Assembly (NCBI GenBank): GCA_023920165.1
Contig: CP089280.1
Span: forward strand, 1,178,001-1,242,000
Reading direction: 5' to 3'
Length of the DNA stretch: 64,000 bases
From: Curvularia clavata
Lineage: Eukaryota
Shown here: one piece after another, positions 37,909-42,322 of the stretch
Numbering within the stretch: the stretch's first letter is position 1
Layout of the letters: every line of letters starts with the position of its first letter
Translations under genes and position numbers: made by a program
Notes under the pieces: model-generated
The model's input: the letters and a program-made list of their open reading frames with translations, nothing else
Database searches by the model: none
What the model was told of the DNA's origin: nothing

Positions 37909-39242
37909 GTTTGGAGATGATCTAGACGAGGCTGCGATATCATGTGAGTAGGAGATTTACTTGTAACGACAGTATATTCTTCGGTATCTCCAAGAGCATG
38001 CAGAAACTCGACAGATGAAAGAAGTCAGAGTTGGGCGGTGGAAATAAAGTGTCGACTGGCATGGCGACTACATCTAGCATTCGGAAACTCGACTTACCGT
38101 AGACTAGCCTAGATTAGGCCCTGCGTGCTGGTTCGATTGGTGACACTTCAGCCTGTGTACGGGAAAATGGTGGATTATTGCCAGATGTGGCGCTGCTGAC
38201 ATAGGGGTCAGAAAGTGCCCGGCAGACAAGTAGTGGTGCCCGCCCTCCTTAGCCTCACTTAGCGCAGCACAGGGACTCGAGAACGAGCGGGCTTAACTCC
38301 GTCGCGCGATATGGGAAAGTAAAAACCGGTGTATGAATACGGTAGCTGAATTTTACAACCTAGCTAGGCGAAGAAGGAGGTGCTGGCGGTGAATGAAAAG
38401 ACGTTATGGTGGGGTAGGTAGGTAGGTCTGCAGGGGACATGGCATGGGTCATCCAGCCTCCCGGGATATGGACTGAGTTCAAATGGGAATGACGAAGCAG
38501 TGGCTGTGTAATAAGAGATTTTCGCTGGATGGAGATACACATAGGGTTAGTAATATATCTCGAACTAGAGACTACACGGCTACTCAATACCAAGTAGTGT
38601 AGCCAATGTATCGATATTCAGTGAAGTTGCCTAAGGTAATTGGCTTGATGAGTGTCTGCAAGTGACAATCGTCTACAGAAAAATATGGTGGAATGAAAGA
38701 CGTAATCGTAATAAAGTCGACATATTTACCACCGATGTTGTTGGTTTAGCATAGCAACAATGCGCCCCTGTATGACGAACTCGAAAAACTATAGAAAGGT
38801 GTATGGGTAGCTCGTCGAATCAGCAGACAGCTGATGGAGTTTACCAGGGCTCATGTTATAGCGCTGTGCAACTGTTTATTGTTCTGAGGGGTATTTCGAC
38901 CATGTTCAAGTGGTTTGGAGGCTTTAGGGTAGCTCCACAGCTGTTCTCATTGTGTGAAGAGACATTGTGGATCTTTCGCGGGTGAAGAAGCGGATAAAGC
39001 ACTTAGAAGTAATGGGCGGCGGCCACTTGGATTTCTGTGAGCAGATGGTCGCTGATGACGCGGGAGCAGGCGATAAGAAGAGTTCTAATGTTAGGATTCT
39101 TATCGTGGGACATCCTGGCTATCGGAACTTTTTGCATTCTGGAGTTGGCTCAGACGTAATTCTTCAGACGATACTCCGAGCCAGAAGCCTCTTTTTCACT
39201 CTAGCACCACTCTCTAAACAAAAAACATTTATAAATAACCTT

Positions 39243-39476
39243 TTCCCATAACTGGTGAAACCGGAAAATGGCGGTCTATAAAATCGTACTAAATCAGAGT
39301 TAAATCACCACTTCTACTTTGAAAATCAGCCATAATTGTCATAGTTACTGATTTTTTACCATGTTTCAGCACTTACAATTCTACTTTTTACAAGTAGCGG
39401 TAGTTGTCACTGTCATTTATCATTAAAAGTGTTGATAGCTTGTTCTTGATTTTCTGGTTTTACTGGTCGCGAGAGA
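39243..39476. repeat. Imperfect palindromic (MITE-like) element, homologous in inverted orientation to 40921-41078
   Basis: Ends TTCCCATAACTGGTGAAACCGGAAAAT ... ATTTTCTGGTTTTACTGGTCGCGAGAG are imperfect inverted repeats. It also has an internal degenerate duplication. No TSD seen. Confidence 0.75.
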
Positions 39477-39747
39477 ATCACCATGTAAGTCGCGATTGTT
39501 TCAAAACATAATGATATTATATCCTTCCTAAGATGCCCAAGAGAGTCCCATCCTGGTGTCCCTCTCTCACGTTCTCTCTATGCTGGTATTTTTGTCCCTC
39601 GTCCACAAACTTCCAAGAAAAACTTCCAAAAAACAACAGATCGTTTAGGGGAAACAAGCATCGCTCCCCGTAGAAATTCGTGTCGTCAACAAGGGTTACA
39701 AGGAAAAGCCAAGTAGGAAAAGAAAATAGGGAAGATAAGAAATGCCG

Positions 39748-42322
39748 CTAGACAATCTGTAAAAAGATGTAAGAAAGAGTTTTAAAGAAAACGGAGATGC
39801 AGAAAAAGATCCTTCAAAAGACTAGAAGGCTTTTTCAGTGCTTAGGGCAGCAGCATACATGTGGACCGCTCTCGATAACCTCCTTGGTAGCCTCATCCTC
39901 GTACTTCTTGAAGTTCTCCATGAAGAGACGACCGAGCTTCTCGACCTCGTCCTGGAGACTGGCAGTGCCGCTCCAGCTGTTGCGGGGGTTGAGCAGGTCG
40001 TCGGGGACGCCAGTGCACTTCTTGGGAACCTGGAGGTTGAAGACCTCGTAGTTCTCGTACTCGGCGTTGGCGAGCTCGCCGTTGTGGATGGCGTCGAGGA
40101 TGGCACGGGTGAATTTCAAGCTGCAGCGCTTGCCGCCAGTGGTGGCACCGGCACCGACCCAGCCGGTGTTGAGGAGCCAGGCGTTGGCGTTGTGCTGCTG
40201 GATCTTCTCGGCGAGCATCTTGGCGTAGCGCATGGGGTGCAGGGCAAGGAAGGGCTGGGCGAAGCAGGAGGAGAAGGTGGCTTGGGGCTCGGTGACACCC
40301 TGCTCGGTACCGGCCATCTTGGAAGTGTATCCAGAGATGAAGTGGTACATGGTTTGCTCGGGGTTGAGCTTGGAGATCGGGGGAAGGACACCGCGAGCGT
40401 CGCAGGTAAGGAGGACAATGTTCTTGGGGTGCTGGTTGGAGATGCAGGGAATCTTGGTGTTCTCAATGTACTCGATGGGGTAGGCGCAGCGGGTGTTCTC
40501 GGTCAGGGTATCATCGTCGTAGTCTACGACACGAGTGACGGGGTCGAAAACAACGTTCTCGAGGATGGAACCGAAGCGGATAGCGCCATAAATATCGGGC
40601 TCCTTCTCAGCAGAGAGACCAATGCACTTGGCGTAGCAACCACCCTCAATGTTGAAGATACCAGTGTCAGACCAGCAGTGCTCGTCGTCACCAATCAAAG
40701 CACGCTTGGGGTCGGCAGACAGGGTAGTCTTTCCTGTTCCAGACAGACCGAAGAAGACAGTGACATCGCCATCCTGGCCCTCGTTGGCAGAAGAGTGCAG
40801 GGTGAGGACGTTGTGCTTGACGGGCATCTCGTAGTAGAGAACGGTGAAGATACCCTTCTTCATTTCACCTTGAATTGATAAGTTAGCTGAGTTCATGTTG
40901 CAGTGCAATTCAGAAAGAACTCTCCCACAGCTAGTAAAACTGGATAATGAAAACGCGCTCATCCCTCAGGACCAACTATCAAAACAGCAAATGATAGTTG
41001 ACTGTGACAACTACAGCTATTTTGAAAAGTGATGGCCTTGGGAGGTCGCCATTTTCCGGTTTCACCGGTTATGGGAGACAGATGTGGGAGAGGAGAGCCA
41101 CTTACCGGCATACTCGGTACCAAGGATAACCATCTCCTTGTCCTGGAAGTTGAGGGCAACGGACGTCGAAGAGGTCATACCGCTAGTGTACCTGTTCGCG
41201 GGGAAAGCACCAGCATTGTAGATGGTGTAGTCGGGTTGGAAGTGCTCCAGCTCCTCCTTGGAGGGGCGAATGAGCATGTTGCGCATGAAGAGAGCATGGT
41301 AGGCACGAGCGCAGACGACGCGGACGCGTATCCTGTAACGCTCGTCCCAGCCGGCGAATCCATCGACGACGTAGATGCGGTTGCGGGTGTTGAGGTAGTC
41401 GATAGCACGCTCACGGTTGATGCGCCAGACCTAGGAGTCATGTGAGTATGTGTATGTATGGTTGGAGCAAAAGCACGTGATAAGATTCCCGAACTGATCG
41501 GGGCGCAGGCTGGAGTGTGGGGCGTGCCGAGACATCCCCGGACGCGCCACGTGCAAGGATGCGAACATCCTCGGGTCTGCCCCTAGCGTGCATGACGTTT
41601 TGACGCTGATCTTGACCAGCCAGCGAGCGCCAATTTACGTATTGGATTGGAATGAAAAACGCTCCAGAACAGGTGCGGAGAAAGGGACTTACGTCAGTCT
41701 TCATTGGCTTGTTAACAGGGCCCCACCAGACGTCGTTTTTCGATGTCTCCTCCTCGACGATGCGCTTATCCGAGGGTGAGCGGCCAGTCTTGGCTCCTGA
41801 GTATGCCGAGAGAGCGCCTGATGCTGTGATGGCTGAGCCGGTCTCGTATACGAGAGCATCTTCGTAGAGAGCAGCAACTGAAGGATTGGCAATCTAGGGG
41901 GTTTGGTTGGTATTGGAAGTATAGTTTGGTTTGTGAGTATACTTACAATGGCTACACGGTCGTAGTCAATGTGTGCCTTGTCGTGGAGTGCCTCTTCAAT
42001 CTCTGTGTGGCCCTTGTTCGGTCTGGAAGAAGAATTAACAATAGTCAATCAAGATGCTCTTTGCCTAAAAGTCCAATCGAGATGGGATGGAAGCATGTGA
42101 AAGTGGGAGAGAGACTCACGCAACACCGGAGGGATGGAGGTTTGTCTTGTTTACGGTTTGAGAGACCATGTTGAAGTTTAGGACGGGGGAGATGGAGGAA
42201 GAATGGAAGTTGGAACGCTGTTGTTTGGACACCTGCTGACGGGCAAAGTCTTGGGCCAAAGTGGAATGGGTTGCGGATGGAAGAAGGGGATTCTGAGGGC
42301 TTTTAATACCACGAGAAGGCAT
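39748..42322 (-). CDS. PCK1: Phosphoenolpyruvate carboxykinase (ATP). Start at 42322 or 42169; stop at 39748 (terminal intron 39757-39858 spliced) or 39835 (retained)
   Basis: [50 protein letters not shown] and ENTRCAYP motifs. Strong C-ending codon bias. Orthologue of Aspergillus acuF. Confidence 0.95.
40921..41078. repeat. Imperfect palindromic element inside PEPCK intron 4 (40869-41105)
   Basis: TCTCCCACAGCTAGTAAAACTGGATAAT ... ATTTTCCGGTTTCACCGGTTATGGGAGA terminal inverted repeat, plus an inner hairpin CAACTATCA...TGATAGTTG. Confidence 0.8.

Follow-up and report, generated by a model that had tools for sequence, protein, structure and literature searches.

The 64,000-nucleotide stretch of Curvularia clavata DNA analysed here (assembly GCA_023920165.1, contig CP089280.1, positions 1,178,001 to 1,242,000; the window, in what follows) contains a gene for ATP-dependent phosphoenolpyruvate carboxykinase (PEPCK), whose last coding exon lies between the arms of an inverted repeat. 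The inverted repeat most probably arose when two members of one dispersed foldback family, resembling miniature inverted-repeat transposable elements (MITEs), inserted here in opposite orientations, and it would have no dedicated function at this locus. A preliminary description of this DNA had proposed that the arms form a long-range RNA duplex controlling splicing or the formation of circular RNA (circRNA), and had mentioned two insertions of a MITE family as the simpler alternative; the copy-number evidence from two sequencing runs, X1 and X3, favours the latter.

The inverted repeat and the copies that form it

The arms were delimited by a repeat-finder search over 38500-42000, by BLASTN searches of the window with the two regions and by direct counting. 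They are listed here with the two copies of the element to which they are assigned (all positions are those of the window):

39244-39273: arm 1a, 30 nt, 29/30 reverse complement (97%) of its partner 41047-41076
41047-41076: arm 1b, partner of 39244-39273, found by repeat-finder, BLASTN and count
39386-39446: arm 2a, 61 nt, 46/61 reverse complement (75%) of its partner 40968-41028, BLASTN E 2e-7
40968-41028: arm 2b, partner of 39386-39446, found by repeat-finder, BLASTN and count
about 39210-39478: copy A, ~269 nt, GC 0.33, AT-rich, degenerate, inverted relative to copy B, beyond the PEPCK stop
40920-41092: copy B, 173 nt, GC 0.46, foldback element within PEPCK intron 4

A chance origin of the inverted repeat is excluded. 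The two blocks were recovered by BLASTN in the window with E values of 1.6e-8 and 2e-7, and the 29-mer of arm 1, searched with up to three mismatches, has exactly two matches there, while two or more matches occurred in none of 100 dinucleotide shuffles. No third copy of the repeat was found in the window by sensitive BLASTN with both regions. The correspondences given in the preliminary description, 29/30 for 39244-39273 with 41047-41076 and 35/44 for 39395-39438 with 40976-41019, agree with our own count; its “third weaker block” can also be recognised in the far ends of the copies (about 39447-39478 and 40920-40950), which align in a full-length comparison of 39205-39485 and 40915-41097, the latter reverse-complemented. 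This comparison indicates that the arms belong to a single element, present here in two copies.

Copy B is the better preserved of the two. It terminates in a perfect 10-nt inverted repeat, CTCTCCCACA, at 40920-40929 and 41083-41092; its halves pair almost throughout, and its 173 nt are predicted to form a single long hairpin of -66.1 kcal/mol. The predicted fold of the whole intron 4 reaches -74.7 kcal/mol (z -4.76), a value equalled by 0 of 200 shuffles; the “own weaker hairpin” previously attributed to each copy is therefore not weak in the case of the intronic one. Copy A differs from copy B by an AT-rich insert of ~21 nt at one end, by the loss of 18 nt and by ~100 nt of extra internal sequence, within which part of the core is duplicated (39311-39366 versus 39379-39433); its termini are reduced to CTCTC...GAGAG and its predicted fold is unexceptional (z -0.85).

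Nothing in either copy points to a coding capacity or to a known structured RNA. No open reading frame (ORF) of at least 60 aa lies within copy A or B; the longest overlapping frames have 40-139 aa, and the stop-to-stop frames that overlap the copies are short and run on into the flanks. Rfam gave no match at a permissive threshold (E <=1), and the tRNA scan gave none, so that the element has no tRNA head like that of short interspersed nuclear elements. No clear direct repeat that could represent a target-site duplication was seen beside either copy, in a comparison of only two decayed copies (the flanks read ...GGCTCTC / TTCTTTC... for B and ...CACCA / AATCACCA... for A); for this reason the element is called MITE-like, and no superfamily is assigned. 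A scan of metagenomes with the 18-nt core of arm 1 retrieved no family members: all 59 loci were chance matches, which covered only 19-26 nt and had unrelated flanks, with the exception of one locus (L044) that matched over 33 nt at 85%. No published description naming the family appeared in the portions of the papers that the literature search made available.

A dispersed multi-copy family

Logan contigs from four public runs were placed onto 38300-41400 at 80% likeness. In run X1, from which this DNA probably derives, a single 216-kb contig spans the whole stretch without any difference; run X3 (organism B) is a close comparator, too close to reveal presence/absence polymorphism; run X4 is RNA, as judged by its spliced contigs, and run X14 is a metatranscriptome.

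Nineteen contigs of X1 were placed, 18 of which match the stretch only partly. Six of the seven partial pieces listed fall on copy A or copy B (39244-39283 twice, 39369-39423, 39392-39442 and 40976-41023 twice), on different contigs of 38-199 kb, and the remaining one falls on 38982-39086. Seven contigs match from exactly 39244 and are unlike the sequence just before it, which identifies 39244 as a common boundary of the element; taken together, the 18 partial contigs and the seven that share this boundary with unlike flanks reveal a dispersed multi-copy family. Summed depth in X1 rises to 730 at 41020 (~8-fold), 454 at 40996 and 369 at 39415, compared with a single-copy value of 90.9. In several contigs the match skips 113-177 nt of the interior of copy A; most members of the family are therefore like the shorter copy B. 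The same multi-copy pattern is found in X3. At the orthologous locus of X3, copies A and B are both present, in gap-free contigs that cover 38300-40156 (16 differences) and 40805-41400 (0 differences). The family has on the order of 10-20 recognisable copies. A high copy number had been indicated in the preliminary description as an argument against a regulatory role, and multiple copies are indeed what X1 and X3 contain.

The element shares several properties with the MITEs and foldback elements of fungi and plants, which often reside in introns and untranslated regions (UTRs). Both copies are small and non-coding, copy B has perfect terminal inverted repeats and folds into a hairpin over its whole length, the dispersed copies are many and have sharp common boundaries, and both insertions at this locus lie outside the coding sequence of the gene. 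Unlike typical MITEs, copy A is heavily decayed and a target-site duplication is not recognisable.

Copy B in PEPCK intron 4

The gene model was obtained from tblastn with the proteins P0002 and P0004, together with the splice sites read in the sequence:

39835-42322, minus strand: PEPCK gene, with exons 42322-42120, 42022-41947, 41893-41693, 41430-41106 and 40868-39835
40869-41105, minus strand: PEPCK intron 4, 237 nt, phase 1, GTAAGT...AG
39835-40868, minus strand: last coding exon, ATP-dependent PEPCK, stop at 39835-39837

The position of one copy within intron 4, already noticed in the preliminary description, is borne out by this model and by spliced contigs from both RNA runs. The joint 40868-41106, which skips 237 nt with GT..AG on the minus strand, has a depth of 4759 in X4 and of 11.9 in X14; the X4 contig that retains the intron (40840-41133) has a depth of 45.6, so that the spliced form exceeds the retained one by ~100-fold. 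When 40920-41092 is removed from intron 4, the 64 nt that are left contain their own GTAAGT donor, GCTAAC branch site and AG acceptor, the donor lying 13 nt and the acceptor 51 nt outside copy B. Without copy B, intron 4 would be a normal fungal intron.

Copy B probably inserted into a pre-existing PEPCK intron of ~64 nt. Once transcribed, its self-fold would bring the donor, 13 nt upstream, near the branch site and the acceptor, both within 51 nt downstream. Efficient splicing of the 237-nt intron is observed, and the hairpin could be what makes the insertion tolerable.

RNA downstream of the stop and through copy A

Three further features, all on the minus strand, describe the region beyond the conserved part of the exon:

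38953-39834, minus strand: transcribed non-coding region, either a long 3′ UTR/read-through or an overlapping non-coding RNA, which holds copy A
39314-39376, minus strand: intron in copy A, 63 nt, GTAAGT...AG, in the duplication specific to copy A
39757-39858, minus strand: optional intron, 102 nt, GTATGC donor, after the codons for GPH; the stop is then at 39748-39750

The non-coding region is covered by record 24 of X4 and records 9-10 of X14. A 695-nt contig of X4, with a depth of 928.5, lies on 38953-39313 and 39377-39710; since the 63-nt gap is bounded by GT..AG on the minus strand, sense RNA crosses all of copy A and the small intron is spliced. Sense RNA, from read-through or from an overlapping transcript, is thus present past ~39480, where a lack of read-through would, in the preliminary description, have counted against its duplex; this contig crosses copy A from 39710 to 38953. 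The same description had located this copy past the spliced stop, and it lies indeed 270-505 nt beyond the stop that is used if 39757-39858 is removed. An intron so far beyond the stop might expose the transcripts to nonsense-mediated decay. No long ORF is present in any of the three minus-strand frames of the spliced copy A RNA, and no Pfam family was assigned to the three small ORFs in 38927-39251.

Contig depth is no measure of RNA ends or RNA levels; the drop of X4 depth from ~6100 to 928 near 39700 hints that the main 3′ end is upstream of copy A and that read-through RNAs are a minority. In X14, 39480-39888 is covered about as deeply as the coding region, and the contig breaks off where copy A begins to be reached (39480), which is uninformative alone; X14 has no cover of copy B or of 38300-39443. 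Copy A is probably an older or more decayed copy, transcribed passively in a long 3′ UTR or in read-through RNA, one duplicated internal segment of which has been turned into a small spliced intron (“intronized”).

The same region holds a second, unrelated repeated segment, at 38982-39086, which has one other contig each in X1 and X3 (12-13 differences over 105 nt). Its other copy is present in X4 RNA with a depth of 135, and the small ORFs that overlap 38982-39086 had no Pfam match.

The alternative end of the exon

The preliminary description took the exon between the arms as a 1010-nt unit, 40868-39859, ending at the GTATGC donor. Use of this donor was indeed detected, as one contig of X14 joins 39756 to 39859 (GT..AG on the minus strand, depth 4, shorter side 30 letters), a splicing event that changes the C-terminus to ...GPHIV. 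The donor is a minor one, the unspliced X14 contig 39727-39888 having a depth of 15.4, and the joint 39756/39859 is not among the joints of the much deeper run X4. Furthermore, the unspliced reading, VCCCPKH, is the C-terminus of four relatives (P0002, P0122 and the JGI proteins P0121 and P0125), which implies that no donor at the downstream end of the exon is in regular use. The source sequences of the two JGI proteins have at most 2.3 kb, and that of P0121 (2221 nt) is too short for the introns. Canonical PEPCK mRNA reads through 39858, and the donor is a minor site at most. The VCCCPKH ending is identical in several Pleosporales proteins; what has been preserved is either a tail rich in cysteines or a conserved splice donor that is read as protein. 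The C-terminus is VCCCQKD in Lepidopterella and VCVCR in some lichen fungi.

Pairing between the copies and alternative explanations

Several observations weigh against an origin by insertion devoid of any function. The predicted cofold of copies A and B has -155.6 kcal/mol and 109 intermolecular pairs, compared with -120.0 for the two self-folds; the minimum free energy fold of the 2448-nt unspliced RNA (41400 to 38953) contains 100 A-B pairs at -760.9 kcal/mol, in helices of up to 20 bp. If pair span is limited to 400 nt, the value is -714.3 and copy B folds on itself, with 62 pairs. Sense RNA contigs cover copy A, and the two arms could therefore be present in one pre-mRNA. In addition, with ~19 copies in 32 Mb and uniform insertion, only ~0.02 pairs within 1.9 kb are expected genome-wide; the closeness of A and B would be explained by local transposition or by a preference for non-coding gene parts. 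Arm 1 is identical in A and B at 29 of 30 positions, whereas in that part A and two other copies show 3 and 5 differences over 40 positions; and the target-site duplications that insertions may leave were recognised at neither copy.

The earlier duplex claim holds to the extent that both arms are found in RNA contigs and that their pairing is predicted, so that a rare long-range A:B duplex is possible on paper; control of splicing or a role in circRNA formation found no support. In the strain represented in X4, copy A is unchanged and copy B carries a single substitution, at 40996, and a single deletion of 1 nt, at 41020; these changes are too few to judge conservation of pairing. The substitution breaks a U-A pair of both the local and the long-range predicted structure and has no compensation in copy A; this gives no hint of selection for pairing, and one event proves nothing. 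No back-splice joint 39859/40868 is among the joints listed for the four runs, two of which are RNA runs; this evidence consists of assembled contigs, from which rare forms are dropped, so that a rare circRNA would escape.

Formation of a circRNA would require the A-B duplex to loop out 40868-39859, with the donor at 39858 joined to the acceptor at 40869 at the expense of the linear mRNA. In animals, pairs of reverse-complementary repeats in the flanking introns drive exon circularization (PMC8938519, PMC8516420), for which arms of 30-40 nt are reported to be long enough (PMC9860190, after Liang and Wilusz). The PEPCK locus resembles circularization by Alu and other reverse-complementary elements in that transposon-derived inverted repeats stand on both sides of an exon, one arm of 30 nt (97%) and one of 61 nt (75%) being at or above this size; the predicted duplex of 100 pairs, the cover of both arms by RNA contigs and the use of donor 39858 at least once, in X14, agree with it. 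It differs from the animal cases in that its downstream arm is in the terminal exon/3′ region, its donor is minor, no junction was seen, and the introns of its fungal host are short and spliced efficiently. Indeed, the downstream arm is outside any flanking intron, at least 279 nt past the acceptor of the optional intron; copy A as a whole extends 279-547 nt beyond that acceptor, which departs from the back-splicing geometry claimed in the preliminary description. The joints listed for the deeper X4 do not include that of the donor, and in this run removal of intron 4 prevails ~100-fold over retention (4759 versus 45.6). Pairing of A with B would need intron 4 to be still present when transcription reaches copy A, and copy B, which has a stable hairpin of its own, is made ~1.6 kb before copy A; the repeat is, moreover, multi-copy. 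As for other kingdoms, few plant circRNAs have, or depend on, complementary flanks, according to the part of PMC9860190 that was available; the exception it reports is that of the maize LINE1-like element reverse-complementary pairs (LLERCPs), which, like the repeat described here, are transposon pairs flanking an exon. Unlike the PEPCK locus, for which there is no such relation, the LLERCPs correlate with circRNA abundance, and the type of element differs. The accessible parts of two fungal circRNA surveys (PMC5928111, PMC8725419) are silent on flanking complementarity, and the literature that could be consulted in part, these surveys included, yielded no case in fungi of an exon circularized through inverted repeats. 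It is therefore very unlikely that the exon between the arms is circularized in this way; the broader proposition, that read-through pre-mRNAs form an A:B duplex of ~100 bp which leads either to the back-splice 39858-40869, with a circRNA of 1010 nt, or to small RNAs, is equally doubtful.

Two other explanations give the repeat an active part. The hairpin of copy B, or the A:B duplex, could be processed to small RNAs by RNA interference (RNAi), silencing the family or damping PEPCK transcripts. RNAi is widespread in fungi, according to the part of PMC7763443 that was available, the predicted stems are long and stable, and other copies of the family are transcribed, as shown by the loose ends of X4 contigs at 39244, 39387 and 39420; but pairing within the stems is incomplete (75% in arm 2), the PEPCK contigs are deep in X4, so that there is no sign of silencing, and nothing ties this repeat family to RNAi, which makes this proposal improbable. 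The repeat might instead be an introner-like element, creating introns such as intron 4 and the 63-nt intron of copy A. Copy B accounts for most of intron 4 (173 of 237 nt), and the GTAAGT...AG intron inside copy A is functional. However, the splice sites of intron 4 are outside copy B, at 13 nt and 51 nt, and the remaining 64 nt are a complete intron, while the intron of copy A is in a duplicated segment specific to A, without counterpart in B; of the explanations considered, this appears the least likely. Insertion of two members of a MITE-like foldback family, in opposite orientation, remains the preferred reading.

The PEPCK host gene

The four introns of the gene have lengths of 97, 53, 262 and 237 nt, and the exon between the arms codes for the C-terminal 343 residues of ATP-dependent PEPCK (Pfam PEPCK_ATP, E 1.2e-149, 499 bits with a cut-off of 26.5). 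The closest protein is a JGI sequence with 98% identity, and Pleosporales PEPCK proteins are 88-98% identical overall; the closest named relatives are Pyrenophora tritici-repentis (90%), Didymella glomerata (89%) and Paraphaeosphaeria sporulosa (89%). Intron 3 (41431-41692, minus strand) is long too, with 262 nt, and GC-rich; the Paraphaeosphaeria model P0002 appears to translate through a long insert at the site of this intron, and a long intron 3 may be conserved across the order.

A second, diverged PEPCK coding sequence is present over 40020-41400 in X3, X4 and X14 (in X4, for example, with 98 differences over 623 nt and a depth of 172-215), and it has a different intron at the position of intron 4. 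It belongs to another organism or strain in the samples and is not a paralogue seen in X1.

Meaning of the inverted repeat

The locus represents an ordinary case, in which a metabolic housekeeping gene that is spliced normally harbours copies of a foldback family in an intron and in its 3′ region. It also indicates that a self-folding insert can nearly quadruple the length of an intron without harm to splicing, and it suggests caution, as inverted repeats around fungal exons are expected leftovers of such families. If, in spite of its low probability, the A:B duplex did yield circRNA or small RNAs, the repeat-driven circularization known from animals would be extended to filamentous fungi, and a chance pair of transposons would act as a condition-dependent brake on a gluconeogenic gene.

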